Position numbers and translations under genes: made by a program. Under the pieces are notes generated by a model. It made no database searches. It saw nothing but the letters and a program-made list of their open reading frames with translations, and was not told where the DNA came from. Shown piece after piece: positions 7,875-47,933 of a stretch of 57,252 nt of DNA (position 1 is its first letter; each line of letters opens with the position of its first letter). Location of the stretch: IMG/VR virus record IMGVR_UViG_3300017987_000106, positions 1 through 57,252 of that record. The stretch is one strand, 5' to 3'. Origin of the DNA: a virus. Its lineage: Duplodnaviria; Caudoviricetes.

Positions 7875-10800
7875 ATGGGCCTCGATGGCGGAAAGGTTGA
7901 CGTAAAGGTCTTCGTAGAGGGGGTCGAGATCCCCGTACTTGGGGTGAGTGTCACTGAGAGACTGGGGGGCGTAGCTCAAGCCAATATTGCTGTTCCCTAC
8001 ATCCGCGCGCTCAAAGACATCTTGGTCAGGTCCTTGGTCCACATCTTCTACTACGACGAGACAGAGATCATGTTCTGGCCGCACGACGTGCCGGAAGGAA
8101 CTCCGCCAGAAGATGTCTTCCCCCCGCCTGAGATAGACGAGGGGCTCAATCTACACCACTACAAGCTCTTGTTTTGGGGGGAACTTGCCGGTGTCAGCCG
8201 CATGGAGTCTGCAGCGCAATCTCAAGGATCTATGACCTGCTTGGGTTTTTCGAACTACTACGACACGATCAAACAGGTGTCTGCTCTTAGGGGCCGCGGT
8301 ACTCTGTCCGACGTCGAGAGGCGGTTTGCCGGAATCGAGAACGAGGTGAGCACGGGCAGCTCTGGTCAGTATTCTACAGCAGATAGGATTACGCAGCTCT
8401 TGCGAGAGGGGTCCCAGAGAACGATTCCAGCATCTACTACGTATGAGGGGCAGGTGGCGTCCATAATCCGCCAGCGAGCAGCCGAGGGAGGCGATACCCC
8501 AAGCCCAGGAGCGATCCACACAGAGGGCATCCCATTCGTCAACTCTGCTTCCATATACAACGGGCTCAGGGAGCGAGGCGTAGACCTCCCGAGAGACTAC
8601 ATCCGCAGATATGGGAGAATGATGCGGGCCTGGAACGAGGGTGGCGAAGAGGCGATGGTAGCTGCTGCTACCCATGCCCTGCGCACTGAGGAGAGGACGG
8701 TAGGAGATTCAGCAGACTTCCAGACTGGCCTGAGAGCTCTCATCAGAGAGTTCATTGAGGGGACCAACGAGTTCTACAGAAACAGGTCTGACGTCATCCG
8801 CCTACCAGACATGCTCAAGGCCATTCCTAACGACGACTCTGCTGAGAGCTTGATGAACTTGGACGTCTTCAAGCGGTTTATGCGCCAGACTATTGGTGGG
8901 CGCGGCATTTATACGATCAGACAGGTATTGCAGATCGTTGGTCGCCACCTTTTCCACGACCACGTGGAACATGCTACTCCGACCTACTTCCCGTTCATCT
9001 CGCGAAGGGCTCAACAAGCCCTAGAGAGAGACGAGATGGACGAGGCAGAGGCCGTCGTAGACAGGGATGAGCAAGTAGACGAGGTGTCAGGGATCGTGTT
9101 CAAGCCAGAGCTTTGGTGGTCTTGCCCACCGGCGTGCAACGTCTTGTTCCCGAGCCACTACGGGTCTATCCAAGACGGGCATAATCAGATTGCAGAACCT
9201 ACCAGGACCCTGCTGAAGATCTCTCCTGGGGTTTCTGGATCCAGGAACACCATCGCCGACGACTTCTTTGCACCAGACCTACAGTCTTTGAACTCTCTGG
9301 CCTTGGAGACCGAAACGTCGTCGCAGGAAGTGTTTCAGCTGCCATACGAGCGTTTTCGTGGCATCAACTACAATGTGGTGATGATGGGGGAGGAACTAGC
9401 TCGCCTATCTCGCAGAGACGGCTACCAGGACTACATGCGGTCCTATGCGCAGTTCACGCACTGGAAGTCCGTCTACCACTCTCGTACTGTGCAGGTTAAC
9501 TCCCAACGTCTACTCCCGTGGGTCCTAGTTGGCTACCCAGCTGTCGCCATTGACAAGAACATCGTCGAGCGCGCTGAGCCTGTGGACGACCCCTACCTCG
9601 AGGAGAGGATGTTGTTGAGGCGGGAGCTGGCTGCTTTACGGAGGTGCCTGCGCCGCCTACGTGCTCGCAGGAGGGCTCTCCTAGAAGAGTTGAGCCGGGC
9701 AGAGGCGAATGCCAACTACATCGAATGGATCAACAACAACCGCCCTGCCGTGTACGCTGGGGATGAGAGGTGGAGTGAGACCCAAACAGAGGACATCGTC
9801 GTAGATTCTGAGGACCCATTCGGTTTGGTGACACCGACCCCCGCATTTAATATGACCGCTGCGTCTATTCGCGCTAGAGACTTGGATCCTGGAGAGACAA
9901 CGGGGGATCCGGTCAATGTCGTGCCAGCGTACCACGAAGAGACTCTGAGGAATGCTCTTGGAGACTCTGCCCAACCCATCGTGCAAGTTGAGGGCAACAT
10001 CTCTTTGAACACCCTGCACGAGGATGCTGCGGATACCCTGTCCGGCATGAGCTCTAGCAATAGCAGCTATGTAGATCGGCTGCGCGCGCAGATTGCTCGT
10101 CTCGATGCGCTCATTGCTCGCGTTACCAGGGCCATCCGAGAGCTTCGAGATCGTCTTTTGGAGCTCGGGTGGGACCTCGGAACCTACGAGCACACGCTAT
10201 TCTACGTCGAGAGCAAGACCATCACCATCAACAAGGGCTCTGTCGCCACCAGCATCGGGGGGAGATTCGCGCACGCGCACGACGAAGATATCGACTACGA
10301 CGGAACTCGCGGAGACACTTTCGAGAATATCATCAAAACTGGTCCCGGAGAGTTCTTCTCAGACAACTACTCCTCCGACCAAATCGGAGCCAACTTCTAC
10401 CTCCCGACGTACGGAGTGAAGTCCTTGATCGACCACGCTGTCGAGCTGCAGCCGCTGACCGAGCATGAAGACGACGCCCTCGACGACGAGATTCTCACAG
10501 AGGCCGACGAAGAGCTCCCGTACTGGCGCGAGGTTCTCAGGGACGTGTGCCAACGTGACTTCGACGCTACGACAGCGGCTGAGGGGATGAGCATCGAAGA
10601 CGCCCTGGAGATCCTCGTGGAGGTGTACCGCAGTATTGGGTTGAACACGCGGGATGTCGAGTCGTTTGTTTCCCACTTCGTCGCCCGCCCAATCGCGACC
10701 ATCGTTGACATATTGGGGGCCGACATTCTTGAGGGAGATCCTACCGTAGATGCCTCGTACCTGTACGGCAACTATCAGGGTTCACAGCTCAATGCCGGTG

Positions 10801-10958
10801 CCGGATACCACCAGTTTGCCTTCCTAGCCGAGGATGAAACGTTTGACATGTCCGGGCTCGAAGGGCGAGAATCAGACCAACTTCACGTCGCTACACTGCG
10901 GCGGAGTCGTGTGCTGGACTACGTTAGGGAGATGACCTCCAGGGACTTCACAGAATGA
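7875..10958 (+). CDS. Putative baseplate hub protein (gp27/gpD-like) with large insertions (1027 aa)
   Basis: N-terminal VKVFVEGVEIPVLGVSVTERLGGVAQANIAVP...LLFWGEL resembles hub proteins; synteny agrees. Confidence 0.5.
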   Translation: MGLDGGKVDVKVFVEGVEIPVLGVSVTERLGGVAQANIAVPYIRALKDILVRSLVHIFYYDETEIMFWPHDVPEGTPPEDVFPPPEIDEGLNLHHYKLLFWGELAGVSRMESAAQSQGSMTCLGFSNYYDTIKQVSALRGRGTLSDVERRFAGIENEVSTGSSGQYSTADRITQLLREGSQRTIPASTTYEGQVASIIRQRAAEGGDTPSPGAIHTEGIPFVNSASIYNGLRERGVDLPRDYIRRYGRMMRAWNEGGEEAMVAAATHALRTEERTVGDSADFQTGLRALIREFIEGTNEFYRNRSDVIRLPDMLKAIPNDDSAESLMNLDVFKRFMRQTIGGRGIYTIRQVLQIVGRHLFHDHVEHATPTYFPFISRRAQQALERDEMDEAEAVVDRDEQVDEVSGIVFKPELWWSCPPACNVLFPSHYGSIQDGHNQIAEPTRTLLKISPGVSGSRNTIADDFFAPDLQSLNSLALETETSSQEVFQLPYERFRGINYNVVMMGEELARLSRRDGYQDYMRSYAQFTHWKSVYHSRTVQVNSQRLLPWVLVGYPAVAIDKNIVERAEPVDDPYLEERMLLRRELAALRRCLRRLRARRRALLEELSRAEANANYIEWINNNRPAVYAGDERWSETQTEDIVVDSEDPFGLVTPTPAFNMTAASIRARDLDPGETTGDPVNVVPAYHEETLRNALGDSAQPIVQVEGNISLNTLHEDAADTLSGMSSSNSSYVDRLRAQIARLDALIARVTRAIRELRDRLLELGWDLGTYEHTLFYVESKTITINKGSVATSIGGRFAHAHDEDIDYDGTRGDTFENIIKTGPGEFFSDNYSSDQIGANFYLPTYGVKSLIDHAVELQPLTEHEDDALDDEILTEADEELPYWREVLRDVCQRDFDATTAAEGMSIEDALEILVEVYRSIGLNTRDVESFVSHFVARPIATIVDILGADILEGDPTVDASYLYGNYQGSQLNAGAGYHQFAFLAEDETFDMSGLEGRESDQLHVATLRRSRVLDYVREMTSRDFTE

Positions 10959-11512: not shown

Positions 11513-12016
11513 ATGTCTCAGGAGAAAATAGCGCTCTCTGGCCGCGCAAAGGCCCTTCTCGGGCTTGGTGGGGCAGCTGCACTCTTGGGGGCTGGCGGTG
11601 CCGGCTACGCAGCAGGAAAGCACAGACACGAGCCCGGGTCACCATTCGGTGTTCAGATCGGAGGACGGCAAGCGATGTTCTCTGGGCCGAGGCACGCACT
11701 CGGCGACCTGCGAGAAGGTCTCGAGGAATACCAACGTGGGGAGCTCGGCCCAGCGGAGATCCAGCAGATGGTTCAAGAAGCACAAGGAAGCGGAATCAAC
11801 TTGAAGATGGCGAGCGAGGTCGGAAAACGGCGTGCTCGTTCATTCGCCGACGAGATGTCGAAGATCGCGCAGACCTGCGCTCAGAGTCTGGTCGAAGCCG
11901 GTCTCCTCTCCAAGGAGGCTGCAGCTCCGTACCTGCAGGGGACTCGCGACCTGCAGAAGTGCGCGCAGATGTTCAAGACAGTAGGCGTGGCGGCATTCCT
12001 GGCGGACAACGCGTAG
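11513..12016 (+). CDS. Small K-x-A-motif protein with Gly-zipper helix; putative virion internal protein
   Basis: EKIA, LKMAS, FADEMSKIA, SKEAA and QKCA motifs; ALLGLGGAAALLGAGGAGYAAG; AGGAG SD. Confidence 0.6.
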   Translation: MSQEKIALSGRAKALLGLGGAAALLGAGGAGYAAGKHRHEPGSPFGVQIGGRQAMFSGPRHALGDLREGLEEYQRGELGPAEIQQMVQEAQGSGINLKMASEVGKRRARSFADEMSKIAQTCAQSLVEAGLLSKEAAAPYLQGTRDLQKCAQMFKTVGVAAFLADNA

Positions 12017-12745
12017 GTGGCCTTCTCTGAGAGAGCCCAGCAAGACATCCAGCTATGGAAGGAGTGGAAACAGCAGCCTGGGCCGCAGACCGTCGGGCCG
12101 CTCCTTACCAAACTCGAGCCCGTGATCAACAATGCGATCTCGGGATCTCTGCGTGGTGGTGTGGCCGGCGGGCAAGCTAGAGTCCCGAAGGTCGTCGTCA
12201 AGGGCATGGCGACGAACATGGCCCTTCACCACCTCTGGAACAACTACGACGGGCGCAGCTCTCAGATCAACACCTACCTCACGAACTACCTCCGCCTCAA
12301 GCTGGCCCCCGAGGTCAACAAGTACCAGAACATCGTCCGGATCCCTCATGGCAAGTCTGACCACATAGGCAAGATCAAGGAGGCTGACATCGAGCTCCAG
12401 GAGGAGCAAGGCCGCGACTACGTCAGCGACGCAGATATTGCCGATAGGGTTGGTCTTCCTGTGCACCACGTCGAGTCCATCCGCAAGCAGACAGCTCAGA
12501 AGGACTATCTGGCATCGAAGGCCGAGGCCGAAGCTGCGGTAGAGCAGACCCCGTTCCAGCGGGCAATGCGGCAGACCTACATCGAGCTCCCACAGCAGGA
12601 CAGGGCAGTTTTCGATCTGTGGCTGAAGCAGAGCAAGCCTGCGAAAGACATCTCCAACATGTTGAACATGAGCCGGCGGCAGCTGTTGGATTCTCAAAGA
12701 CGGATCGGCGAGAATCTCCGCGACAACCATGCGTACATGGGGTGA
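12017..12745 (+). CDS. RNA polymerase sigma factor, sigma70 family (group 3-like: regions 2, 3, 4)
   Basis: Region 2 (LLTKLEPVIN...NNYDGRSSQINTYLTNYLR), VRIP motif, region 3 (LQEEQGRDYVSDADIADRVGL), region 4 HTH (LPQQDRAVF...AKDISNMLNMSRRQL). Confidence 0.8.
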   Translation: MAFSERAQQDIQLWKEWKQQPGPQTVGPLLTKLEPVINNAISGSLRGGVAGGQARVPKVVVKGMATNMALHHLWNNYDGRSSQINTYLTNYLRLKLAPEVNKYQNIVRIPHGKSDHIGKIKEADIELQEEQGRDYVSDADIADRVGLPVHHVESIRKQTAQKDYLASKAEAEAAVEQTPFQRAMRQTYIELPQQDRAVFDLWLKQSKPAKDISNMLNMSRRQLLDSQRRIGENLRDNHAYMG

Positions 12746-22069: not shown

Positions 22070-24754
22070 ATGGCGAGTGGAGTCAACGCTTCCCTAAGGG
22101 AATTCATCGAAGAGAGGATGGCGGTCTACGACTCTGACATCGATACGGACTCTGGTTCTGAGTTCGACCAGCTCGTCATTGTCCCACTTCTCAACCGCCT
22201 CGGCCCGGATACGACTGAGACGGACGCTGAGCAGATCGTCATCGATCGTGTCAGGACCCACGACCCTACTATCTCCGTGGACGTCGGCAGCGGTATCAGG
22301 GACGGACTCATCACCCCTCTGGGCGCCATCTTGGAGCCTTTTCGTAGGGCAGTGAACCTGGTGCTTCTCAGGAATAGCTGGACGAACGTCGAGTCCATGA
22401 CCAACGAGGAGGCCGATATCCTGGCAGAGAACGTCTTCTACTACAGGGATGAGGGGGAGAAGTCCATCGGGTCCATCCGGTTGAAGTTTGCCTCCCCCAG
22501 GGACGTTTCGGTAACCCTTCAAAACGTCGCCTACGCGGGTAGTTTGAGGTTTGTACCAACTCTTCCGCAGTCTATCTCCAGGTTGGAGATGACAGCGCAG
22601 ATGACTGGCGCTTACTACTACATGGACGTTTCGATGATCGCCGAGCAGGCCGGGGAAGAGTACAATGTGGAGGCCGGTACCATCTCTGAGATCGACGGCG
22701 TCACAGGGGTTGTAGGCGTAGAGCAGCTGGCGGACTTCCGCGATGGGCGGACTACCCAAACGAACCTCGAGCTCCGCGATGCAGCTCAGACCAGCATCGT
22801 CGTCAGGAACCTAGTTACTGAACGGAGCATCCTCACAGTCCTGCCAGACCAAGAGCACTACCCAGAGATCGGCGCGATTCTCGTCGTCGGTAGGATGGAT
22901 CCTGCAATGTCCCGAGACTTGGTCTACGGCCCTGCCTCTATCGGAGGTATCCCGCAGGGAATCAAAGGCGGGTCTGCGCCCGACATCGTCGTCGGCGAGA
23001 AGTTCCACATGGGCGGCTTTACAGACATCTGGGCTGCTCCGAGCGCTAGCACATCGGACGTGACCGAGTCCATTGACGTCAAGAACATCTCCGATGAGGG
23101 TGCCCTCGTCTTCAGTTCTGAGACAGGCTACGTGAATGCAGGTACCCCCGGAGTTCTGGAGGACATCCGCGCTTTCTTCACCGAGGTCGACGAGGGCTTC
23201 CTACCTGTCCAAGTGGACGACTACGTCATCGTTGAGGGCCAGCATAGTGGCGGGCAACACATCGAGTACGTCGTTACGGCGGTCAACGATACCGACATCG
23301 AGGTGACTCCAGATATAGCCTCCGGGTCCAGCTTGTCGGAGGTGTCCTACGAGATCCGCCGCCGGTACCCAGGTTTCGTGTCTGTCAGCGTCGACACGTT
23401 GGTGGCCGAGGCAGACGGGTCTCCCGTCTTGGACTCAAGTGGGAACCCTTACCTCCCAAAGCCTGGGTTGGTCAAAGAGTCAGAAGGCGTCTTAGCCGCG
23501 TCCAACAAGGGTAGCGGGAACGTGTCTCTCCCCTTGTTCTACATATCGCGCGTGGAGTTCTTGGACCCCATAACTGACCAGCCGACTGGTGAGGTAGTGC
23601 CGGAAGGGGACCCGATCGTGTTGTACATCTCTGACCGGGCGTCATCCTCGGTCGTCTGGGTCAGGGTCGTGTACCGGTACCCAACGCGCTTCGTCTTGCA
23701 GATGAATCACAAGCTCTGGACCTTGGATGCCGGAACCTACTACGTGCCACCTGTGCTTTCGGGAACGGCTACCTTGGTCAGCTCGACGGTCGTGGAGATC
23801 GACGGGGTACACTACGACAGCACTCCCTACGTATCTTGCTACCCGGACAGGAAGCCCCAACCAGGGGACTACATCGAGTACTACGATCCAGCCTCACCAG
23901 GTACAGCTCTTGCCGGATCAGTGGTCGTTGCCACCAACGTCGGGGCGTCGAACCGCTACGAAGTCGAGGAGGCTGTCCTCCCGTTCCCGGGAACGCCCGG
24001 GTACGAAGCACGGATTCTACAAGGGTCTAGGAAGTCGGACATGACGTCTACAGACGCTTTCGGGTTCTACTACTTCGATATGCTCATGGAGAGGTATACG
24101 GGAACCCGACAAGAGGTGGGCACACCACTAGCTTCTCCGACGAATGCCTTTCTCTTGACGCAGGGGTGGAGACTCGTACCAAGATTGGAAGGGTACGGCT
24201 TCTCGACTCTCGAGGAACCGGGCTTGACGATCACGAGCAAAGTCAACGACACGACCGACGTGGACGGGGAGTCGATCAGGATCACCTACTTGACGACTCC
24301 CCTGTTCCGAGACGTGCAGGACTTCTTGGACAGCGACTCGGAAAGGGTGCCGGCGGAGGACATGCTGATTCGCCGAATGCCTCCGGCGAGGGTCCACATT
24401 GCTATGAACTTCAAGCCAGATTCGGTCACCGACCTTCCGACAGAGGAAGAAGCTGAGTCTGGCCTCGCCGAATACATCGAGGCTTCCGTATCGTCTGAGG
24501 AAGAAGCCTACGGCTCGGCGACGGCCATCTCCAATGTCGTTGAGGAACTGGGAGCGAGGAAGGTAGAGTACCCCTTCAGCACTATCGTGGAGTACGCTGG
24601 GAAGGCTCGTTCCGGCCAGGGGTTGTTGGGGAGGCTTATGAGCTTCCACGGGTATGATGGGTTCTCCGTGCCCGAGAACATCAGCACAGCCATCGAGAGC
24701 CTGTTCCGCATGGCGCAGTTCATCCCAGGAAACATTGAGGTGGTTGAGGACTGA
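22070..24754 (+). CDS. Baseplate J/gp6-like wedge protein (894 aa)
   Basis: VGSGIRDGLITP, AEQAGEEYNVEAGTISEI, DFRDGRTTQTNLELRD match the baseplate J pattern. Confidence 0.75.
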   Translation: MASGVNASLREFIEERMAVYDSDIDTDSGSEFDQLVIVPLLNRLGPDTTETDAEQIVIDRVRTHDPTISVDVGSGIRDGLITPLGAILEPFRRAVNLVLLRNSWTNVESMTNEEADILAENVFYYRDEGEKSIGSIRLKFASPRDVSVTLQNVAYAGSLRFVPTLPQSISRLEMTAQMTGAYYYMDVSMIAEQAGEEYNVEAGTISEIDGVTGVVGVEQLADFRDGRTTQTNLELRDAAQTSIVVRNLVTERSILTVLPDQEHYPEIGAILVVGRMDPAMSRDLVYGPASIGGIPQGIKGGSAPDIVVGEKFHMGGFTDIWAAPSASTSDVTESIDVKNISDEGALVFSSETGYVNAGTPGVLEDIRAFFTEVDEGFLPVQVDDYVIVEGQHSGGQHIEYVVTAVNDTDIEVTPDIASGSSLSEVSYEIRRRYPGFVSVSVDTLVAEADGSPVLDSSGNPYLPKPGLVKESEGVLAASNKGSGNVSLPLFYISRVEFLDPITDQPTGEVVPEGDPIVLYISDRASSSVVWVRVVYRYPTRFVLQMNHKLWTLDAGTYYVPPVLSGTATLVSSTVVEIDGVHYDSTPYVSCYPDRKPQPGDYIEYYDPASPGTALAGSVVVATNVGASNRYEVEEAVLPFPGTPGYEARILQGSRKSDMTSTDAFGFYYFDMLMERYTGTRQEVGTPLASPTNAFLLTQGWRLVPRLEGYGFSTLEEPGLTITSKVNDTTDVDGESIRITYLTTPLFRDVQDFLDSDSERVPAEDMLIRRMPPARVHIAMNFKPDSVTDLPTEEEAESGLAEYIEASVSSEEEAYGSATAISNVVEELGARKVEYPFSTIVEYAGKARSGQGLLGRLMSFHGYDGFSVPENISTAIESLFRMAQFIPGNIEVVED

Positions 24755-33563: not shown

Positions 33564-34553
33564 CTACGCGTTTGCCTGAGTCGTCAATTCGTCCCAGATC
33601 AGCGGGACGGAACGAACCCTGGGCATTCCGCGAACTTCGATGCCGAGAGCAGACCCGAGCTGGGCCAGCAGCGCCGACGGAAACCTCTTCTCATCTTGGA
33701 GACTGAGGATGGAGACCTTGTGTGTCTCTCCGTCGATCTCGACGTTGTAGGTAGCTCCTTCGTCTTCCTGTACGGACTTCGTCGTAGCCTTCCCGTTCGT
33801 CTTCTGCTTCTCTGGCTTCCCCTCGGGCTGCTCCTCGACCTTCTCTTGGTCAGTCAGGCGCATACCGAGGACGAAGGCCTCTTCGAGAACCTCATCCGTG
33901 ATTCCGAAGTCGAGGCCCCGGATGTCTCCCACGAGGCCCCCGAGGAGTACCAGCGCATTCCGCAGAACAGTCGTCAGCCGGTCGGCTTCCTCGAGGACGT
34001 TCGACACCATGTCGTAGATGGCTTTCCGTTCGTCCGATCCGAGGGCCTGCCCCTCCGCCAGTGCGGCGACGTTGTTGTAGAGAGGCGCAAGCTGCTCCTG
34101 TAGCAGGTCTCCGATAGCGGCGATGTCGACAGTCGCTTTGGGTTTCCTGCTTCGGGTCTTCTTTGCCTTCTTCTGGGCAGGCTCCGGCTCCGGTGCCTGC
34201 TTCGTCGCTTCTTCCTCTGGCGGGGACGTGTCGATAGGCACCTCGACCTCCTGCTTCGGCTCCGGCTCCGGCTCTTCGGGAGCTTCTCCGGTCGGCGGCC
34301 GCGGGGCTGCCTTCTTGAGGGCCTTGGCCCCGGCGATTCCCTCCTCCTGATACTTCTCCCAGATGAGGTCCAGGAGGACCGACTCCTCCTTGATGAGGGC
34401 CGTGTAGGGGCCCTCGTACCCTTTCTCAGCTCCAGCTTTGGACCGCGGAACCTGATAGCGCTCTTCGAGGTACAGCATCAAGAAGAGCCGGGGGACCTTC
34501 CTCAACTCCGGCCTGGTGTACGCAAACTGAGCATCCAATTTCTTTCCTGTCAT
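33564..34553 (-). CDS. Hypothetical protein with E/P/K low-complexity linkers
   Basis: ATG 34553 with AGGAG SD (the track start at 34640 is probably too long). Confidence 0.65.
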   Translation of the reverse strand: MTGKKLDAQFAYTRPELRKVPRLFLMLYLEERYQVPRSKAGAEKGYEGPYTALIKEESVLLDLIWEKYQEEGIAGAKALKKAAPRPPTGEAPEEPEPEPKQEVEVPIDTSPPEEEATKQAPEPEPAQKKAKKTRSRKPKATVDIAAIGDLLQEQLAPLYNNVAALAEGQALGSDERKAIYDMVSNVLEEADRLTTVLRNALVLLGGLVGDIRGLDFGITDEVLEEAFVLGMRLTDQEKVEEQPEGKPEKQKTNGKATTKSVQEDEGATYNVEIDGETHKVSILSLQDEKRFPSALLAQLGSALGIEVRGMPRVRSVPLIWDELTTQANA

Positions 34554-34561
34554 CTCTCCTC

Positions 34562-34903
34562 CTAGCGTTTCAGCAACCAGGGGTTGTCCTGGTTGAGGTA
34601 TCCTCCACGGATCATGGTTTTCAGATTCTCCAGAAAGCACTTCACCCGCATCGCTGCCTCACAGCGGATGCAGTCTGGGAACCCTGGGTGTTGGGCACTG
34701 ATTGTGTCGAAGTGGTCTTCCACCCACGTCATCTGGATGTCACTCATCTCCCAGAAGGGATGGTGCATCGCCGCGACGTCGATCTTCTCTCCGTCTTCGT
34801 GCTTCCTGATGTATTCGATGATCTCCTTCGGCGACATGCTCTCAGGCAGGAAGAGCCCTTTGAGCTGTGCGTGAAGGAGAAGGTCCTTTTGGTTCAGCTT
34901 CAC
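34562..34903 (-). CDS. Hypothetical protein (113 aa) with a CxxC...C motif
   Basis: GTGA coupling with rusA; DCIRCEAAMRVKC. Confidence 0.6.
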   Translation of the reverse strand: MKLNQKDLLLHAQLKGLFLPESMSPKEIIEYIRKHEDGEKIDVAAMHHPFWEMSDIQMTWVEDHFDTISAQHPGFPDCIRCEAAMRVKCFLENLKTMIRGGYLNQDNPWLLKR

Positions 34904-35376
34904 ATGACCCTCCAGATTTCGACTTCGACTCTGGGGTCATCCGGGTCTACGTCCTTCTCGACGGCGCTGAAGAAGAAGTTGGCGTCGTCAATACCGGTGA
35001 AGTCCCTAATACAGTCGAGTAGGGGTTTTACGCGGTTGTCGGCGTCAAGCTTCAAGTAGGGAGATGGCCCTCCTCCTCGGTTCTTCTTCCGGATCCGCTC
35101 AAAGTAGAACGCGGCAACGACCAAGTAGACCCCGTCGACTGCGTAGATGTCGTCCGGCAGTGTGATGAGGTGAGGGTTCTTGTCCGTGACCCGCCTGGCG
35201 AAGCTCGCCTTGTACTCCCTGTAGAGCCTGCTGTCTACGATACGTCCGTTGACAGCTCGCTGCATCCTATTCAGGGAGGGCGGCATCGGGCAGGTCATGG
35301 AGACGCGCTCCTGACGCTTGAGAATCCTCCTCATGTCCAGTATGTGACGTTCTAGGTACGTCCCTTGTTCTTCCAT
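34900..35376 (-). CDS. rusA: RusA-like Holliday junction resolvase
   Basis: PPSLN N-motif; DADNRVKPLLD...IDD catalytic motif; C-terminal PRVEVEI. Confidence 0.85.
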   Translation of the reverse strand: MEEQGTYLERHILDMRRILKRQERVSMTCPMPPSLNRMQRAVNGRIVDSRLYREYKASFARRVTDKNPHLITLPDDIYAVDGVYLVVAAFYFERIRKKNRGGGPSPYLKLDADNRVKPLLDCIRDFTGIDDANFFFSAVEKDVDPDDPRVEVEIWRVM

Positions 35377-36062
35377 CTTGATGCCCTCGCCTTCGTTCGT
35401 TCAGCCGAGGGGTTGTAGTCGTTTTCGTACCCAGGGCTGTGGTATGACCTTTGTGCTTCCTCCATCTTCGCCATGCGGTTGCGATTGAGTGCTTCCACCA
35501 CGCGCCGCCACCCATCGTAGAGAGCTTGCGCTCTCTTGTAGGTGCTCTGTGCGAGGAGGTAGACCTCCTCGGCGTGTAGGACTCTGGCGTCTGACTTCGC
35601 TTGTTCGGTCCTCGCCTTGTCGGAGTACTTCCTGCCTGTCGCTGGGTCCTTCTGCCCGCGCAGGTCCATCTCGACCATCCTCTGCAGCCTGGACATTTTC
35701 ATCTTGGCTGCAGCCTGGACATACTCGAGGTCGACCAGCTCACAGGACTTGAACGCCAGCTCGGCGGAGAAGTACTGGATGAGATGCCCCACCATCTCGA
35801 TGTCGAGTTTGCTCACGTCAGCCGGCGGGACCAGTTCCAAGTCTTCGAGGTCGACCCCTTCCAGGCGGCGGTCGTTGAGGAACATCCTGTATCCCTGGTG
35901 GACGCACTCGATGAAGGGCTTTACGACTTCGGGGACTCGGGGGCGCGCGAATGGGATAAACCCCCGAGCTCGAGCTCGGGAGATGACTGTCTGTTGTAGG
36001 GCGTCCAAGGATGTCTCGAGCAACTTGATGTCCTCGGACGCGTCGATGTTGAATTTTGGCAT
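35352..36062 (-). CDS. UvsY-like recombination mediator (putative)
   Basis: Helical C-half (KYSDKARTEQAKSDARVLHAEEVYLLAQ...) resembles UvsY; same operon as RecA/UvsX. Confidence 0.45.
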   Translation of the reverse strand: MPKFNIDASEDIKLLETSLDALQQTVISRARARGFIPFARPRVPEVVKPFIECVHQGYRMFLNDRRLEGVDLEDLELVPPADVSKLDIEMVGHLIQYFSAELAFKSCELVDLEYVQAAAKMKMSRLQRMVEMDLRGQKDPATGRKYSDKARTEQAKSDARVLHAEEVYLLAQSTYKRAQALYDGWRRVVEALNRNRMAKMEEAQRSYHSPGYENDYNPSAERTKARASRWKNKGRT

Positions 36063-36065
36063 GTG

Positions 36066-36821
36066 CTACTCCTTCAAGCAGACTTCCCGGTAGGGGCAAG
36101 TCCTGCACCAGAAACCCTGATACGGAATGGGGAGCTCACCCTGGTTGATGGGAGCGAGCACTCGGTCGAGGATCCGCCGGCGGTACATTTCGTACCGTAC
36201 TGGGTCAGCCCGCATGACAGTTTCCGTCTTCTCCAGGTCCCCCAGGTCCAGCTCGGTCCCTGCCATAACCAGCGTCTCCCAGTCGTGGAGACCGTCCATA
36301 CAGAAGTACAGGAACGTGCAGGTTTCCCAACCGAAGGCGACGAAGTAGAACAACACCTGGTCGGCGTGTGTCCGGAGCGGCTTCCCCGAGCTGACGATCT
36401 TCTTATACTGACCAGCTGAGATCGGCTTGATCTCCAGGCCGTACTTCCCGTCGAGTTGGGAGTCGCCCTTCATCCGCATCTGGAGTTCCGGGATGCCACC
36501 GGAGATCTCATGGATTACCCTGTCCTCCCCGTATATCTTTGTCAGGTACCCCTGGTACAGAGTGTGAAGAGCCTTCCCCGTATCGAATCTCTTCAGGGTC
36601 CCGATTTTGAATTTCGGGGACTGCTTCGTCCCTACCGCCTTGTACCCGAGGAACCTGTCGCAGTATGGTCCTTGGTCTGAGGCTGTGAGCATCGATGGGG
36701 AGAGGTCAGCTGAATAGACCTTGCTCCTCTCCCGTTGCTGTTCTGCGAGCAGATACTCGGTGATTTTGTTCTTGAGGTCCCAGGGGTCGATTAGCTCAAT
36801 CCCCTCTAGGGCTTCTGACAT
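36066..36821 (-). CDS. Cas4-like PD-(D/E)XK exonuclease with putative 4Fe-4S site
   Basis: SPS..C, GKALH, D...LEIK, Q...Y motifs; C-terminal CRTCPYREVC. Confidence 0.8.
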   Translation of the reverse strand: MSEALEGIELIDPWDLKNKITEYLLAEQQRERSKVYSADLSPSMLTASDQGPYCDRFLGYKAVGTKQSPKFKIGTLKRFDTGKALHTLYQGYLTKIYGEDRVIHEISGGIPELQMRMKGDSQLDGKYGLEIKPISAGQYKKIVSSGKPLRTHADQVLFYFVAFGWETCTFLYFCMDGLHDWETLVMAGTELDLGDLEKTETVMRADPVRYEMYRRRILDRVLAPINQGELPIPYQGFWCRTCPYREVCLKE

Positions 36822-37315
36822 AACTCCTCCATGTAGTCGTCGTTGTGTTTCTCAAATTCGTCCCAGAGGACAATGATGAGCTCCCACCCGAGCCACTGAG
36901 TGTGCAGCGGCCCGTCGTACAAGTCGTCTACGAGATCTGTGCTGATCTTGCAGGACCACCCAGATGACTTGTTGGGGATGGAGAGACACGCCCCCTTGGG
37001 CTCTTCTCCACCGAGCTCTAGCCAGTCATTTCGCTGTATCACAGCGACGGGGGCAGCGTCTCCTACTGTCACCCGATAGACCGGCATCTTGTAGACGGTG
37101 CGAGCTTCCCTCAGCAGCTTCCGCCAGAGGGCTTCGGTCAAGTAGAAGACCGCTGCCGACCTGACTTTGTCCTCAACCAAGGCGTGCGGGAAATCTACGT
37201 CTCCGGGATCTCGAGGGTCGTTCCCGCTACCCCTTGTCGTCCTTCCGTACTTCCCCGCTGCCGTCTTCTCCGACTCCTGGGACTTTCGGAAGGTTCTCCT
37301 CGACTTCAGTGCCAC
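36806..37315 (-). CDS. Phage PD-(D/E)XK endonuclease, Hjc-like resolvase candidate
   Basis: E..A..YGRTTRGSG...GDV....LVEDK. Confidence 0.65.
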   Translation of the reverse strand: MALKSRRTFRKSQESEKTAAGKYGRTTRGSGNDPRDPGDVDFPHALVEDKVRSAAVFYLTEALWRKLLREARTVYKMPVYRVTVGDAAPVAVIQRNDWLELGGEEPKGACLSIPNKSSGWSCKISTDLVDDLYDGPLHTQWLGWELIIVLWDEFEKHNDDYMEELCQKP

Positions 37316-38564
37316 TTACTCTCTCCGTCAGCAACTTCTGGCAGGCCCAGCGGACCTCTTCCTCGTCTCGCAGGACCTCGTCTACCAGCATCCGGCCCCC
37401 GGCGATGAATCTCTCCTCGTGCCCAGGTAGTCGCAGGTAATACCCACGGGACCCGTGCTGCACGAGCCAGTCGGTGTCCAGCAGAGCTGTGCGGATGGCC
37501 TCTGCCTCGTCGAGTGTGCCGGCTGGAATAGTCGACTCTTTCCCAACGTGGTCGTGCTTGTAGTACCTGACTTGGACGTTCTTCCCGTCAGCAGCTCCGT
37601 ACTTCACCTTCTTGAGGTAGTAGTTGATGAGGTGCGACGTCTCGACGTGGTCAGGCGCCTTCTTGCTTTGGGGGCCGGTGTAGGTCTCTTTCCCGGATAC
37701 CCTCGACATCTGCAGCGTGACGCCCGAGTAGTGCTTCAGTGCCCACCCGCCCGTTTGCTGCTTGTCCAAGGTGATGTTGGGGCCTATTTGAGCCATCCGT
37801 AGCTGAGAGATGAAGAAGCAGACGGTCCGCCTCTTCTCTTCGACAGAGCGCCCTCTGCGCTTGACCTTGACGGGCTCCTGCATGATGTGGCCCTTGAGCC
37901 TGAAGAAGTCGCTCAGGAGCTGGGCTCTGCCTTGTCCACCTCTCCCTTTCGACGCCCCGCTGATGCCGTCTTTCTGCGCCCCAGCCATCGCTTCAGCCAG
38001 TATCAGCCCGTCGATTGAGTTGAGGACGATCATGTCGAAGACGCCAGCACTCGACAGGTCGAGGATCAAGTCCATCGCCGCCTGGGCGTCTTTGGCGTGT
38101 GGGAACCAGATGTCCCCGATGCCCTCGTTCTTGAGCTCCTTCTTCTTCTTCGCTGGGAGCTTCTTCTTGTGCCTCTCTTCCCACAAGTCGATCTCGCCAT
38201 CGCTCCAGTCGAGCTTGCACCCGACCAGGCGCGCGAAGTTCTTGTCGAATTCGCCCTCGTTGTTGATGAATGCGGCGGTGGCCTCCTTCCCCTTGTTCCT
38301 TTGCAGAGCTGCAAGGCACAAGTTCGCCGTCAGGTCCTTCCCGACGTTGGGCTCGCCGTAGATGATGACGTTCTGGCCGCAGGGGTACCCCCCGTTCAGC
38401 GCCAGATTCAATGAGAAGATGCCTGAGTCGAGCCTGATCTCGTGGACGTTGAAGAGCTTGTCCGCCGGCGTGAAGACGACTTCATCGCTGCGGCTCAAGC
38501 CCCTGGTCAGCCCTCGTAGTATCTCAGTTCTCGTCGGGGCTTCTTCCTCCTTCTTCTTCGGCAT
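37227..38564 (-). CDS. recA: RecA/UvsX-like recombinase
   Basis: SGIFSLNLALNGGYP; Walker A GEPNVGKD; FINNE; MIVLNSI; FISQLR; TGGWALKHYS. Start placed at ATG 38564 after a GAGGAGG SD. Confidence 0.9.
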   Translation of the reverse strand: MPKKKEEEAPTRTEILRGLTRGLSRSDEVVFTPADKLFNVHEIRLDSGIFSLNLALNGGYPCGQNVIIYGEPNVGKDLTANLCLAALQRNKGKEATAAFINNEGEFDKNFARLVGCKLDWSDGEIDLWEERHKKKLPAKKKKELKNEGIGDIWFPHAKDAQAAMDLILDLSSAGVFDMIVLNSIDGLILAEAMAGAQKDGISGASKGRGGQGRAQLLSDFFRLKGHIMQEPVKVKRRGRSVEEKRRTVCFFISQLRMAQIGPNITLDKQQTGGWALKHYSGVTLQMSRVSGKETYTGPQSKKAPDHVETSHLINYYLKKVKYGAADGKNVQVRYYKHDHVGKESTIPAGTLDEAEAIRTALLDTDWLVQHGSRGYYLRLPGHEERFIAGGRMLVDEVLRDEEEVRWACQKLLTERVSGTEVEENLPKVPGVGEDGSGEVRKDDKG

Positions 38565-38718
38565 TCCGTTCCTCCTCGTAGGGCTTCGTCCCACAGTTTG
38601 GGCACCAGCTCACCCTACCTTTGTTCTCCATCCTGCCTCCGCACGAGGGGCACGAGCCTGGCTTTCCAGCCTTGGCTGTTTTGACAGAGACTTGTTCTAC
38701 TCCGTACTTTTCCATCAC
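38524..38718 (-). CDS. Small zinc-ribbon protein
   Basis: CPSC...CPNC; AGGAG SD overlapping the polA stop. Confidence 0.7.
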   Translation of the reverse strand: MMEKYGVEQVSVKTAKAGKPGSCPSCGGRMENKGRVSWCPNCGTKPYEEERNAEEEGGRSPDEN

Positions 38719-38724
38719 GGTCTC

Positions 38725-40677
38725 CTACTTGGCATCGGCCCATGTGTAGGATGTTCCACCTTCCGCCTCTACCGGGACGTCGTATGGGAGTCCCGGCCAC
38801 CCTCTCGGGTTCTCCATGATCTCCTTCACCCGGGCCATGGTTGAATCACCGTTCTCTTCTGGGGCCAGGAAGAGCAGCTCATCGTGAATCTGCAGAATCA
38901 TCTCGGCTCCGAGGTCGGCGAGAGTACTGTCATACTCTGCTTCCATCATAGCCAATTGAATGAGATCTGCAGCAGTTCCCTGGATCGGGAAGTTGATAGC
39001 TTGCCTTTCGGCCGACGACCTGTCTGCGTAGCTGGAGTGGTAGGTGCCATGCGGGGTCCTCGTGCGGCCCAGGATTGTACTGACCGTGCCCGTCTCCCAG
39101 AGCATCTTCTTGTAGTAGTTGATGCCCTCTCGGATTCCAGGCCGGGCCTCGAGGTACATCTCGATGGCGTCTTTGGCCTCCTCAGTGCTGACGATGCGCC
39201 CGAGGATTCCGGTAAGCTGAATGGCCAGTCCTTGCGGACCGATCCCGTAGTTGATACCGAACCCGGTTGTCTTTGCAGAGCTCCGGTAGTTCTTCAGAGC
39301 TTTCTGGGCCTTGGTCGGGTCGGACGCTTTCTTCGCTGCGATGATCTCCTCGTAGTCGAGGCCATACATCATAGCGGCCGTCATGGAGTGGAGGTCCATC
39401 CCGTCCGAGATGGCTTGGATGAGCCCGTCGTCGCCGAACATTGCGGCAGCCAGTCGCATCTCCAGGCCACTGTAGTCGACGCAGACGATGATGTATCCGG
39501 GTGGGGCAACGACGGCTTCGCGGATCTTGTAAACGTCACGGTCGGCGTTAGGAAGATTGAGCAGGTTCGGCTGACTGCTACGTAGGCGGTTGGTTACCGT
39601 CGTCGCCCGCAAGGACGTGTGGATCCTCCCGTCGTGGGCGATGTGTTTGAGCAAGCCTTCGACGTAGGTCCCCTTGATCTTGATGATCTTGCGGTAGTCG
39701 AGAATCTGACGGGCGACTTCATGCCCCTCTCGAAGAAGGGCTTCCATGGTCTTCTGGTCGACGGACCACCCGGTGGACGTCTTCCTCTTGGGCTTGAGTC
39801 CCAAGGTCCCGAACAAGAACTCGGAGACCTGTTTGGGCGAGGACAAGTTGACGCTGACATTGTACTCGCTGCAGAGCTCGCGGGTGATATCCCTGGCGTC
39901 CTTCACCATCGGCTCGGCTAGCTGACTGAGGCGTGCTGCGTCGAAGGGGACACCGCGCCTCTCGATGTTCTGGAGCACCTGGATGAAAGGAACATCGAGG
40001 TGGACGTGCTGGTCCCACCTGGTCGGCTTCTTTGGAACTCCAATAGCGGCGAGAGATTCTGGGGCACCCTCCCACGGGATCGTGGCCAAGCGCTCCTGGA
40101 TCATCTCCCCAACCTCGAGCGTTGCCCATGGGTCTAGGGTAGCGTAGTCGGTTGCAGCCTGTTGCCTCTCGGGGTCTTCAAAGACTTCGACGACGAGTTT
40201 GCGCGTCATCTTCTTCCCGAAGACCTCCTTGAACCCCTTCAAGTTCAAGCCGCACATCTTCTTGGCGATGGTCTTCAGGCCATGGTCTCCCTCTTCGTCG
40301 AAGAGGTGGTGCATCTTCATCGTGTCGCCACGAAGGCCCCTCACTTCGATACCATGGTTGGCCATGAGCCTGTAGTCGTAGGGAGCGTTCTGCGCGAACT
40401 TCGGCTTCTCCGGATCCTCAAACCAGGGTCTGAGTATGTCATAGAACACGAAGTAGGCTGGGCTGTATGTGGGGACTAGGACTCGCCGGCCGAGAGGGTG
40501 TGAAGAAGGCCGGTATGCGAACTGAATCATATAGACGGTAGCGTCCCATTCGAGACCAGAAGTCTCAGTGTCGTAGGCTACCACCTCGTCGTAGGCCATC
40601 AGGCTTTCGTACAGGGCCTGGACCTCTTCCTTCGTCGTTAGTACCTCCGGCGGAGGCAGGTCTAGTCGGTATTTCAT
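38725..40677 (-). CDS. polA: DNA polymerase family A with 3'-5' exonuclease, no 5' nuclease
   Basis: YDTETSGL (ExoI), YATLD (ExoIII), DYSGLEMR (motif A), RSSAKTTGFGINYG (motif B), QIHDEL (motif C). Confidence 0.95.
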   Translation of the reverse strand: MKYRLDLPPPEVLTTKEEVQALYESLMAYDEVVAYDTETSGLEWDATVYMIQFAYRPSSHPLGRRVLVPTYSPAYFVFYDILRPWFEDPEKPKFAQNAPYDYRLMANHGIEVRGLRGDTMKMHHLFDEEGDHGLKTIAKKMCGLNLKGFKEVFGKKMTRKLVVEVFEDPERQQAATDYATLDPWATLEVGEMIQERLATIPWEGAPESLAAIGVPKKPTRWDQHVHLDVPFIQVLQNIERRGVPFDAARLSQLAEPMVKDARDITRELCSEYNVSVNLSSPKQVSEFLFGTLGLKPKRKTSTGWSVDQKTMEALLREGHEVARQILDYRKIIKIKGTYVEGLLKHIAHDGRIHTSLRATTVTNRLRSSQPNLLNLPNADRDVYKIREAVVAPPGYIIVCVDYSGLEMRLAAAMFGDDGLIQAISDGMDLHSMTAAMMYGLDYEEIIAAKKASDPTKAQKALKNYRSSAKTTGFGINYGIGPQGLAIQLTGILGRIVSTEEAKDAIEMYLEARPGIREGINYYKKMLWETGTVSTILGRTRTPHGTYHSSYADRSSAERQAINFPIQGTAADLIQLAMMEAEYDSTLADLGAEMILQIHDELLFLAPEENGDSTMARVKEIMENPRGWPGLPYDVPVEAEGGTSYTWADAK

Positions 40678-40690
40678 ATCCTATCCTGGT

Positions 40691-40720
40691 TGGGGGGAGG
40701 CAGTCTCCCACCTCCCCCCA
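40691..40720 (-). terminator. GC-rich hairpin with GAGA tetraloop between the SSB and polA genes (terminator/attenuator or processing site)
   Basis: Perfect 10-bp inverted repeat tggggggagg/cctcccccca. On the minus strand it extends to 13 bp around GAGA. Confidence 0.55.
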
Positions 40721-40737
40721 GGTTGGTGTGGTGACGG

Positions 40738-41841
40738 CTACCGGTTACCGCGCCTGTACCCGCGGGAGCGTTGTTGCTGAGAGCCGCCTCCGGGCGCCAA
40801 GCCCATGTCTTTGAGCTGGTCGTTGAGCTTGTTGACCTTCAGCTTCTTGCTGAAGTCCATGCCCTCGGCGAACGCCTCCAAGGCTTCCTTCGGTACTTCG
40901 AAGTTGACGTACTCGGCCCAGGACATTCCCTGGGGTTTCTCACAGGCGTACGTCGTGGCCGTCTTGTCCCCGATGCGAGTGACCTCCATCGGCTTCATGA
41001 ACGGATCGATGGGGCGGGCCTCCGGACAGCTCTTCGGGTTCTTCTCGTGGTTGAGGCAGGAGTAGACAGCCTCGGGGAGGAACATGTTGTTGAAGGCGTC
41101 TTCCTCCTTCTCTGTGGTCCAGCAACCTCCGTCCTTGACCGGCTTGCACTTCTGCAGCTGGTTGAGGACCTGGTGGCGGATCTTGACAGGCCCACCCATC
41201 CGCCCGAGCTCGGAGTCGGTCTTCAGGATGCACCCGCACTCGGGGCAGCGGACCTCGACGACGTAGCACGTGCTGACTTCTGGGTCGCCCGTCTCGGCGA
41301 CGCATTCGCACACGTCCTCGAGGCTCTCGGCGAAGTCGTTCCAGGAATCCTGCGAGTTGGACCCCATCCGAAAGAACCTCGGACCTCCAATGACGGCTTC
41401 CTCGGGCCGTGTGTCGCCGGAGTGCCTGCCATGCCACATCTCGTACAGGGCCATGTTGTTCTGGCCCATCGTCATCAGCCACCAGTTCATGTCCCAGACG
41501 CCCAAGAAGGAGAAGGAGGTCTTGACGACCCCAACGCTCTTCGCCTTGGTCTGCCGTTCCTTGTCTCGCTGGTCGCAGTAGTAGCACTCTCCGTTGAAGT
41601 CGGGGAGCTCTCTCGTGCAGGCGACGTACCGGCGCGAGTCACCGACCTTGTGGGCCGGAATCTCTTCCTCGATCTGGTACTCCCCTTCCCCGTTCAACAT
41701 CGGGATGTACAGCCCGCTTTCGCCCGGATCGTGACGGATCTTCCAGCGCCTGAAGGCGAATCGATCCTCGTCGGTCTGCTCTTGTTGAGCTTTCTGGCGC
41801 GCGAGCTGTCGGCTACGTGCTTGTGCGTTTCTGAGTCCCAT
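40738..41841 (-). CDS. Putative single-stranded DNA-binding protein (gp32-like) with Cys-rich insertion
   Basis: H...C...CYYC Zn-type motif; VTRIGDKTATTY OB-type C-motif; lies between primase and polymerase. ATG 41841 with AGGAG SD. Confidence 0.5.
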   Translation of the reverse strand: MGLRNAQARSRQLARQKAQQEQTDEDRFAFRRWKIRHDPGESGLYIPMLNGEGEYQIEEEIPAHKVGDSRRYVACTRELPDFNGECYYCDQRDKERQTKAKSVGVVKTSFSFLGVWDMNWWLMTMGQNNMALYEMWHGRHSGDTRPEEAVIGGPRFFRMGSNSQDSWNDFAESLEDVCECVAETGDPEVSTCYVVEVRCPECGCILKTDSELGRMGGPVKIRHQVLNQLQKCKPVKDGGCWTTEKEEDAFNNMFLPEAVYSCLNHEKNPKSCPEARPIDPFMKPMEVTRIGDKTATTYACEKPQGMSWAEYVNFEVPKEALEAFAEGMDFSKKLKVNKLNDQLKDMGLAPGGGSQQQRSRGYRRGNR

Positions 41842-41852
41842 CTGGTTTTCTC

Positions 41853-44116: not shown

Positions 44117-44141
44117 TGCTTACCTCCGTCTTGGGACGCAC

Positions 44142-44170
44142 AGATTACTACGCGGAAAGGCCCTGGTCAA
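44142..44170 (-). promoter_or_regulatory. Sigma70-type promoter upstream of helicase-primase-SSB-polA
   Basis: TTGACC-17 nt-TAATCT in one of the few intergenic gaps. Confidence 0.5.
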
Positions 44171-45373: not shown

Positions 45374-45382
45374 CTACTCCTC

Positions 45383-47833: not shown

Positions 47834-47904
47834 TCATGTCCTCCTTGCGCTATGTTCCTGTCATCCGGTGCCCTGACTTATACGGAGAACTGAAAGGCAC
47901 GACG

Positions 47905-47933
47905 TTGACGGTCTTGCCTGCTCCGAGTAAGCT
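47905..47933 (+). promoter_or_regulatory. Sigma70-type promoter driving the head/portal/RNAP operon
   Basis: TTGACG-17 nt-TAAGCT in the divergent intergenic region. Confidence 0.55.

Follow-up and report, generated by a model that had tools for sequence, protein, structure and literature searches.

The phage sigma factors gp55 of T4 and gp28 and gp34 of SPO1 set temporal classes of transcription by acting on the core RNA polymerase of the host. The virion polymerases of N4 and phiKZ, the former (vRNAP) a single-subunit T7-like enzyme and the latter a split multisubunit enzyme with, to our knowledge, no sigma factor, are made late, packaged, and injected to serve the early genes. We likewise know of no alpha or omega subunit in the enzymes of AR9 and phiKZ. 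The non-virion polymerases of these two phages are multisubunit-type enzymes that use a phage-encoded specificity subunit (AR9 gp226, phiKZ gp68); as described in the part of the source available to us, gp226 serves a polymerase split into four core polypeptides and is sigma-like in structure only (9.6% identity to sigmaE, one sigma4 helix, and no helix-turn-helix), and the AR9 and phiKZ promoters lack any conserved sequence ~35 nucleotides (nt) upstream (PMC9209446). Here, we describe a gene at positions 12017–12745 of a viral DNA of 57,252 bases (Duplodnaviria; Caudoviricetes; IMG/VR record IMGVR_UViG_3300017987_000106), which was analyzed over its whole length and is hereafter called the window. 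The gene encodes a divergent sigma70-family factor, and the same window carries a gene for a fused beta–beta′ RNA polymerase. We propose, with a probability of roughly 0.6, that this sigma factor is the promoter-specificity subunit of the phage's own fused polymerase, and that it is probably made late, packaged into the virion, and injected. The window is the entire record, linear, and is estimated to hold ~31% of the genome; the two genes in question are as follows:

12017..12745, + strand: sigma open reading frame (ORF) of 242 amino acids with a GTG start, a divergent sigma70-family factor with the order sigma2-sigma3-sigma4 and a size like that of group 3 sigma factors
51815..57250, + strand: fused beta–beta′ multisubunit-type RNA polymerase, one ORF of 1812 amino acids, open at its 3′ end, where it is cut by the end of the contig

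Searched alone against Pfam, the window sigma matches Sigma70_r3 (E = 0.0039, 17.7 bits vs a cutoff of 25.3) and Sigma70_r4 (E = 0.007, 16.3 bits vs a cutoff of 24.1) and gives no match to region 2, and it matches PHROG 351, "RNA polymerase sigma factor", with E = 9e-5. A profile of nine sequences, comprising the window protein and eight metagenomic homologues with 42–79% identity to it, aligned with the solved SigA 8h3v_G over regions 2.3–3.1 (E = 4.4e-9). When this set was extended to 28 sequences with more distant homologues from related phage records, the match rose to E = 5.9e-18, with profile positions 62–230 corresponding to SigA 191–377 (regions 2.2–4.2), such that the alignment runs through region 4.2 and takes in the sigma4 helix-turn-helix (4.1–4.2). 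Across the 28 family members, Pfam recognizes Sigma70_r3 in 27 (best E = 1e-10), which identifies the sigma3 domain (regions 3.0–3.1), as well as region 2 in four and region 4 in three; the sigma2 domain is seen at the profile and fold level only. Region 2.1–2.2 is the principal core-binding part of bacterial sigma factors.

The AlphaFold2 model of the protein is all-helical, with a mean predicted local distance difference test (pLDDT) score of 81.5 and helices at residues 179–241, the sigma4 part, at pLDDT 83–95. A Foldseek comparison with the PDB returned 18 matches at E ≤ 1e-3, with sigma factors in every match listed, including SigD, SigA, and SigB of Bacillus subtilis, FliA, WhiG, and sigmaS. 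The template modeling (TM) scores to these structures are low (0.2–0.46), as is to be expected for a three-domain protein in which the orientation of the domains is free. A further eight matches at E ≤ 1e-3 were obtained in BFVD, three without a name and the rest named as phage sigma factors. Bacterial group 3 sigma factors (FliA/sigma28, SigF/SigB, WhiG) rank highest in both the fold and the profile comparisons, and the window protein resembles them in its length of ~240 amino acids, its sigma2-sigma3-sigma4 order, and the helix-turn-helix of its region 4, at a structure-based identity of 11–16%. The paired tryptophans of the SigA stretch TWWIRQAITR are lost in the corresponding window stretch, TNYLRLKLAP, and, unlike the group 3 factors, the window sigma is encoded by a phage, beside structural genes, and comes paired with a phage polymerase. 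Since the relatives, through the profiles, the Pfam matches of the family, and the fold matches, supply the signal that is missing from the single sequence, we consider the identity settled: the product of 12017–12745 is a true sigma70-family factor that resembles group 3 in its size and in the order of its domains, with region 2.1–2.2 strongly diverged. The original prediction, a model's reading of the window's letters, had reported a sigma factor with regions 2, 3, and 4, and both the 28-member profile and the fold comparison bear it out.

The polymerase ORF matches the Pfam models Rpb2_6 of beta (E = 4e-55) and Rpb1_2 of beta′ (E = 2e-29), and therefore, with both sets of domains in one ORF, it encodes a fused beta–beta′ enzyme; searches against the PDB gave beta matches at 6e-49 and beta′ matches at 4e-52. 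A cyanobacterial gamma subunit is the best PDB match of the N-terminal part of the window beta′. In the complete relative G001, which has a single polymerase match in its genome, the orthologue is an open frame of 2084 amino acids with 61% identity, and most polymerases of the lineage are likewise one open frame of 2040–2150 amino acids. In some relatives (L013, L014, L030, L047, L054, L055, and L061), the frame extends to 2500–2661 amino acids, 400–600 above the usual length, which suggests large insertions, possibly inteins. In the subclade of Salmonella phage Arash and Vibrio phage D69, the polymerase is split inside beta′ into a gene of ~1526–1558 amino acids (beta plus the N-terminal half of beta′) and one of ~606 amino acids, found in the loci L017, L021, L064, L066, L069, L079, L081, L084, and L085, in Arash as gp206 and gp216, and in D69 as genes 0261 and 0264. 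The point of this split is reminiscent of the cyanobacterial gamma/beta′ split.

Two stretches of the window polymerase correspond to the surfaces that dock sigma factors:

53990..54037, + strand: flap-tip-equivalent stretch of the beta part, VDPRSPEAIQRKRARL, shorter than in Thermus beta
55388..55417, + strand: EDINHLYRDL, where the first beta′ clamp helix begins, aligned to SDLNDLYRRV

In the alignment with Thermus beta, VDPRSPEAIQRKRARL falls on the flap-tip stretch ("...PTPEERLLRSIFGEKA..."), with two gaps, of 4 and 8 residues. Most clades have preserved a flap tip that is helix-like, typified by "PSKEQLLLKGIHKSL", and the window version is shorter and more basic. In the clamp helix, N1195 and Y1198 are invariant among 39 polymerases of the lineage, and the phage stretch aligned to the bacterial RRVINRNNRL is altered as well. 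Judged from these alignments, both predicted sigma docking elements are retained in the phage polymerase, and the flap-tip-like helix and the clamp helix of the original prediction were thus both located, at the coordinates listed above.

A scan of IMG/VR with the polymerase alignment yielded 83 confirmed stretches, from which 79 distinct loci were kept, and the sigma factor was sought in 27 polymerase records (the 25 longest contigs, G002, and phage Arash). Exactly one match to the sigma profile was found in 23 of these, with E values from 1e-10 to 1e-125, and a broader profile recovered the C-terminal end of a sigma gene at the very start of the contig in G023, for a total of 24/27, or 17 of the 18 records that are at least 90% complete. 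The three polymerase records with no sigma match are G010 (91% complete), G022 (69% complete, with a polymerase just 25% identical), and G024 (70% complete). The reverse scan, with the Arash-type sigma, gave 13 loci, of which seven lie in records already known for their polymerase; among the four new records tested for the polymerase, it is present in both complete ones and absent from two fragments that are 10–15% complete, and a further two small contigs fell outside this test. The cultured Vibrio phage D69 also has both genes. A tblastn search of a phage collection with the window sigma found Arash alone, the D69 copy being detected only with the profile.

The two proteins also share their history. 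When trees were built for the same 23 records, all seven well-supported sigma clades recurred in the polymerase tree, and the pairwise identities of the two proteins are correlated (Spearman 0.70, 253 pairs), with the sigma factor being the less conserved of the two in 246/253 pairs. The sigma and polymerase genes have therefore been inherited together vertically over a long time, although co-inheritance taken alone is no proof of contact. The sigma family is large, with 1111 clusters (50% identity) at E ≤ 1e-30 among 1.84 billion representative proteins, and the best 150 of these clusters are mostly full-length matches. In this large phage lineage, whose genomes measure ~150–200 kilobases (kb), the gene is present in single copy; cultured members include Salmonella phage Arash and the Vibrio phages D69, D148, and D181.

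The alpha N-terminal domain (models PF01000 and PF01193) and omega (PF01192) were sought by six-frame Pfam searches in the window, G001 (100% complete), G002, and Arash; none of these four records had a match at E ≤ 1, while 14/14 control genomes scored. That the window itself holds no alpha or omega gene had been noted before and is correct for this ~31% of the genome; the complete relatives G001 and Arash extend the observation to full genomes. Very divergent or nonhomologous stand-ins may exist, or host alpha may be used. As for the minimal system of beta–beta′ plus sigma that had been predicted on this basis, it is supported by the sigma70 identity, the co-occurrence, the co-inheritance, and the lack of detectable alpha and omega in complete relatives, and the pairing of sigma with core is a prediction from the docking surfaces.

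A second sigma factor was found in one subclade only. In Arash, this is gp196, with a canonical region 2 (Pfam, 6e-10):

120656-121693 of Arash (L112:2657-3694): second sigma gp196; the same type occurs in L113 and L115-L122

Factors of this type occur in 9/28 records, Arash included, all nine of which have the split polymerase gene, and none was detected by Pfam region 2 or by a gp196-type profile in the window (G000), G001, G003, G005, or G007. A Pfam scan of 133 ORFs of at least 70 amino acids at 57–167 kb of G001, leaving aside the first 57 kb and 8 ORFs that cross locus boundaries, showed no additional sigma factor or polymerase subunit, the regulators seen being small helix-turn-helix, Myb-like, MerR, and CsrA proteins only. 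The gene at 12017–12745 therefore encodes the only detectable sigma factor of the window's clade. We note that the same scan of G001 turned up an 896-amino-acid protein with an intein (72650–75340), a protein with a CRISPR-associated Csx3 domain, a cluster of 4–5 pentapeptide-repeat proteins, and two FGE-sulfatase-like proteins:

137493-138656, 121716-125507, and 126045-127714 of G001: the Csx3, pentapeptide-repeat, and FGE-sulfatase-like group

The placement of the sigma gene was compared with that in its relatives, and the features that serve as landmarks are as follows:

7875..10958, + strand: large structural-array protein, its N-terminus weakly like Arash gp8 (25% over 131 amino acids, E = 4e-5)
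11513..12016, + strand: upstream ORF of 167 amino acids with no family, its stop abutting the sigma start
22070..24754, + strand: baseplate wedge or Baseplate-J-like protein (phrog_6, 2e-8), weakly matching Arash gp13; used as the linkage marker
26065-28065: Arash gp14-like gene, a weak match
33564..47609, − strand: replication and recombination block with PolA, primase, a DnaB-like helicase, a RecA-like protein, UDG, RusA, and an SF2 helicase
49821..51806, + strand: portal protein gene, 26.5% identical over 615 amino acids to Arash gp204 (E = 6e-74), directly before the polymerase gene, as in Arash

The sigma gene lies inside a run of plus-strand ORFs spaced by −4 to +9 bases, and the TAG stop of the ORF upstream is directly joined to its GTG start (TAGGTG). 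Between 6 and 18 kb, neither promoter-like elements (2 vs 3.8) nor terminator-like elements (8 vs 7.0) exceed the shuffled expectation. The window is collinear with G001, and, by synteny, its array corresponds to Arash gp8–gp14, which were counted among the structural proteins on the basis of mass spectrometry, gp8 being a cell wall hydrolase listed among the virion proteins (PMC10585845). The earlier placement of the sigma gene in the middle of baseplate genes is borne out only in part: it fits this array by synteny, the immediate neighbors have no family match, and the nearest recognizable baseplate gene (22070–24754) lies 9.3 kb downstream. The products of 10955–11503 and 11513–12016 are Gly/Ala-rich proteins with hydrophobic stretches, and only the C-terminal half of the latter is conserved in G001 (39% identity over 79 amino acids). 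A baseplate-J-like homologue was found in 21/24 records, and in all of these except the fragment G002, its position is downstream of the sigma gene and on the same strand (20/21). The distance is ~1 kb in eight records, 7–20 kb in ten, and ~36 kb in two, one of which counts only if it is read as circularly permuted. Linkage of the sigma gene to the baseplate module is thus a conserved trait of the lineage. This conserved position, and the single fused polypeptide of the polymerase directly after the portal gene, go beyond what had been recognized from the window alone, as do the virion-associated homologue described below and the second, more canonical sigma factor of one subclade.

The homologue in question is Arash gp10, annotated as "RNA polymerase sigma factor RpoS" (OQ632216.1), which is 27% identical to the window sigma over residues 5–164 (E = 2e-7; profile E = 1.6e-17) and has an equivalent position, with a large structural protein on one side and a baseplate-J-like gene on the other. 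The Arash genome resembles the window in having the same polymerase after the portal gene and differs from it in having this polymerase split into genes of 1525 and 606 amino acids and in having the second sigma gp196. In the tandem mass spectrometry proteome of Arash particles, gp10 was detected with 100% coverage, 24 unique peptides, and 467 spectra, the beta subunit gp206 was the most detected protein with 3516 spectra, and the C-terminal beta′ subunit gp216 gave 1210 spectra (PMC10585845). From these published counts, we calculate that sigma has 2.0 spectra per residue, beta 2.3, and the C-terminal beta′ subunit 2.0, vs 1.5 for the portal and 4.3 for the major capsid protein; this crude measure is compatible with a stoichiometric complex of sigma and polymerase. 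A word search of the same paper found no mention of the second sigma gp196. The presence of the homologue in the virions of a cultured relative therefore points to an enzyme that is packaged and injected, rather than one that is merely self-contained. We note, in addition, that a helicase gene, gp217 (141261–142679), directly follows the C-terminal beta′ gene of Arash, that its product gave 2.4 spectra per residue in the same data, and that it may be another packaged transcription partner.

Candidate promoters were sought upstream of the genes of these phages, and two elements of the window are conserved with G001:

47877..47883, − strand: GTATAAG promoter-like element, intergenic and facing the replication block, within a stretch conserved with G001, TCCGTATAAGT
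47905..47933, + strand: TTGACG-N17-TAAGCT, a sigma70-like bipartite element, conserved at G001 46272-46300 and unique in both records

GTATAAG occurs once in the window. In G001, no other word is as enriched upstream of genes, and that genome has 32 occurrences against 7.1 ± 2.4 expected from a first-order Markov model (maximum of 15 in 100 runs). The G001 copies lie mostly 20–150 nt before start codons in the nonstructural part at 90–162 kb, with no conserved −35 element. The top upstream motif is also GTATAAG in Arash (40 vs 11.3 ± 3.3 expected under the Markov model) and GTATAA in G003 (GTATAAG, 20 vs 4.5 ± 2.2). In Arash, 36/40 copies are on the strand opposite the structural, portal, and polymerase genes, with the consensus tGGTATAAGtAAagTGTAaA. 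D69 and G013 carry a one-base variant, GTTATAAG (tGTTATAAGtAAtATGTAA in D69), with 19 copies in D69 vs five of the reversed control, 18 of the 19 on one strand. The motif is thereby enriched ahead of nonstructural genes in very distant members of the lineage, and in the Arash-like phages and D69 nearly all copies keep to one strand. When GTATAAG was compared with a reversed-pattern control in 31 records, the excess was strong in seven Arash-like records (34–41 vs 8–14), clear in G003, G011, and G018, and modest in G007, G012, and G001. The bases that precede the heptamer are mostly CGG in G003 and are C, G, A, or T in G001. An interpretation of the motif as a host extended −10 element (TGnTATAAT) was dropped, the upstream T-G being frequent in Arash and D69 only.

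The motif family is common to phages of Salmonella, of Vibrio (by phage name), and to other members of the lineage. Host −10 elements end in their most conserved T, and GTATAAG ends in G. Because the gp10-type sigma is the only sigma factor common to all motif-bearing genomes, we consider it the best candidate reader of the motif, and (G/C)GTATAAG a candidate promoter. In 7/7 close Arash-like records (L089, L098, L100, L101, L103, L104, and L108), the sigma strand carries GGTATAAG 292–305 nt upstream of the sigma gene, with the ATG of the preceding small gene 5 nt further on, and in G004 and G006, the copy of GGTATAAG near the sigma gene is one of just 1–2 minority-strand copies. A search for a late-promoter motif, TTGAC-N16-18-TA...T, gave nothing beyond the single conserved site listed above. 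A second upstream motif, CTAAAATA(T), is enriched over the whole records of D69 and G013 (loci L169–L187), with 11 vs 2 for the reversed control in D69 and 14 vs 3 in G013, where it lies mostly on the strand of the structural genes; it is not enriched in Arash (5 vs 5) and may mark another promoter class.

Taken in sequence, the mechanism that we propose is one in which the sigma gene would be transcribed and translated along with the late structural genes, and its product would be packaged into the virion together with the polymerase, the gene of which follows the portal gene. Within this complex, the clamp helices and the flap tip, both retained, are the predicted docking sites of sigma2 and sigma4, respectively. 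The injected two-polypeptide holoenzyme would then transcribe the nonstructural genes from −10-like (G/C)GTATAAG promoters that have no −35 element. Packaging is favored because a late array is a sensible place for a sigma factor needed early only if the previous infection supplies the protein, the same logic that applies to the late-made virion polymerases of N4 and phiKZ. A fuller version, to which we give somewhat less than even odds, would have a packaged two-polypeptide holoenzyme with neither alpha nor omega injected to read a lineage-wide, −10-only promoter, (G/C/T)(G/T)TATAAG, with the second, nonvirion sigma of the Arash/D69 group switching the same core to a different class of promoters.

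Several observations weigh against the proposed role of this sigma factor and should be taken into account. G010 is 91% complete, and neither profile found a sigma factor in it. The window protein falls below the Pfam cutoffs when it is searched alone, and in 24/28 family members region 2.1–2.2 is too diverged for the Pfam region 2 model. The virion data come from a single distant relative, the gp10 of which is 27% identical to the window sigma. Moreover, the Arash particle set was reported to comprise 116/272 proteins, among them ribonucleotide reductases, ligases, and helicases, carry-over of abundant proteins is allowed for by the authors themselves, and a word search of the paper found neither a CsCl nor a polyethylene glycol step (PMC10585845). 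At the level of the promoters, the excess of GTATAAG in G001 is small when measured against the reversed control (32 vs 25), and in about ten records, for example G002, G016, G022, G013, and D69, the exact heptamer shows no excess over this control; a host sigma could also be the reader of the motif, as could, within the Arash subclade, the second sigma. Finally, the operon with the portal and polymerase genes has the conserved TTGACG-N17-TAAGCT in front of it; this element resembles a promoter of the host type, and synthesis of the polymerase would then depend on the host.

These observations leave room for other explanations of the same gene. Co-occurrence, co-inheritance, and synteny would look the same if the sigma factor were cognate to the phage polymerase but not a virion component, acting inside the cell to direct one temporal class, such as the late genes, with its place among structural genes reflecting co-regulation only. 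The permissive Arash proteome, in which 116/272 proteins include metabolic enzymes (PMC10585845), fits such a role, and the early-type GGTATAAG some 300 nt upstream of the gene in 7/7 Arash-like records would permit its expression apart from the late array. However, a switch for late genes would then itself sit in the tightly packed late array, the polymerase gene adjoins the portal gene, and in Arash the spectra per residue of the sigma factor equal those of the two polymerase subunits and exceed those of the portal, with the second sigma going unreported in the text available to us. We therefore regard a purely intracellular sigma as rather unlikely.

An alternative in which the sigma factor binds the host core and redirects it to phage promoters, leaving the phage polymerase with another specificity factor or with none, finds precedent in the sigmas of Bacillus phages with no polymerase of their own, which are among the nearest structural matches, and in the surveyed jumbo phages that have a sigma factor, lack a polymerase, and are thought to use the host core (PMC7824862, as far as the available part of that survey goes); the host-type TTGACG-N17-TAAGCT of the window would agree with it. 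The family described here is of the same sigma70 type as the factors of T4, SPO1, and the SigF-like sigmas of Bacillus phages, but differs from them in being tied to a phage polymerase. The co-occurrence is near-strict across very different base compositions and, where known, hosts (Salmonella, and Vibrio by name), and the promoter-like motif is shared across host boundaries. In addition, the core-binding region 2 has moved beyond Pfam recognition in 24/28 members, and the stretch of the phage clamp helix aligned to RRVINRNNRL has changed too. On balance, we judge action on the host core improbable. It could also be argued, from the weak Pfam scores of the window copy, its location among structural genes, and its lower conservation than the polymerase in 246/253 pairs, that what remains is the degenerate relic of a sigma factor, which takes no part in initiation and has become a virion protein with a structural or DNA-binding function. 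This we consider very improbable indeed, as the lineage has retained all three sigma domains, correctly ordered and spaced, region 3 is recognizable in 27/28 members, the fold matches listed are sigma factors throughout, and the family numbers 1111 clusters at E ≤ 1e-30, the best 150 of which are mostly full-length.

In comparison to the described systems, the proposed role as specificity subunit of the phage's own polymerase would place this sigma factor beside gp226 and gp68, from which the window protein differs in being recognizable as a sigma factor by sequence, with full sigma3 and sigma4 domains, and in having as its putative partner one fused chain. Phages of the phiKZ/AR9 type divide each of beta and beta′ between at least two polypeptides, carry two polymerase sets per genome, and have no sigma70-family factor (PMC7824862 for the latter); here, beta and beta′ are fused or split once inside beta′, G001 has a single polymerase match, and 24/27 records have the sigma factor. 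The polymerase does agree with the mReC lineage of Weinheimer and Aylward (2020, PMC7481178), large uncultured tailed phages with beta and beta′ similar to cellular COG0085 and COG0086, and the 79 loci collected here fit that lineage by description. Their paper, which describes a deeply branching multisubunit polymerase in Caudovirales, contains neither "sigma" nor "virion" in its main text, and of the nine occurrences of "sigma" in its annotation table, neither of the two examined concerns this gene. In the Arash paper, gp10 is both annotated and included in the virion proteome, and no analysis of gp10 as a partner of the phage polymerase was found in the part available to us (PMC10585845). 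We found no description of a packaged sigma70-family factor in the literature examined, and, in a search that did not extend to subscription journals and PDF supplements, no paper in which this sigma is regarded as partnering the fused polymerase.

In the survey of Iyer et al. (2021), as far as the part available to us shows, no sigma factor was found in polymerase-encoding phiKZ-type phages, and sigma-encoding jumbo phages have no polymerase, such that phages otherwise fall into two groups, those with a polymerase and no sigma factor and those with a sigma factor and a borrowed host core (PMC7824862); the present lineage has both. The comparative evidence supports an interpretation of this pair as a putative sigma-dependent, alpha-less fused phage polymerase that is possibly delivered by the virion. 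If this is true, it would be a minimal sigma-dependent holoenzyme that assembles with neither alpha nor omega, one that would help to ask what recognition between sigma and core requires and that would be usable as an orthogonal transcription module. If, in addition, the packaged holoenzyme is true, this would be the first sigma70-family virion component known and the simplest natural sigma-dependent polymerase of the multisubunit type. The cultured members of the lineage, Arash, D69, D148, and D181, make the question directly testable, and if the polymerase branches as deeply as claimed, the viral pairing of sigma with beta–beta′ may be comparably old.

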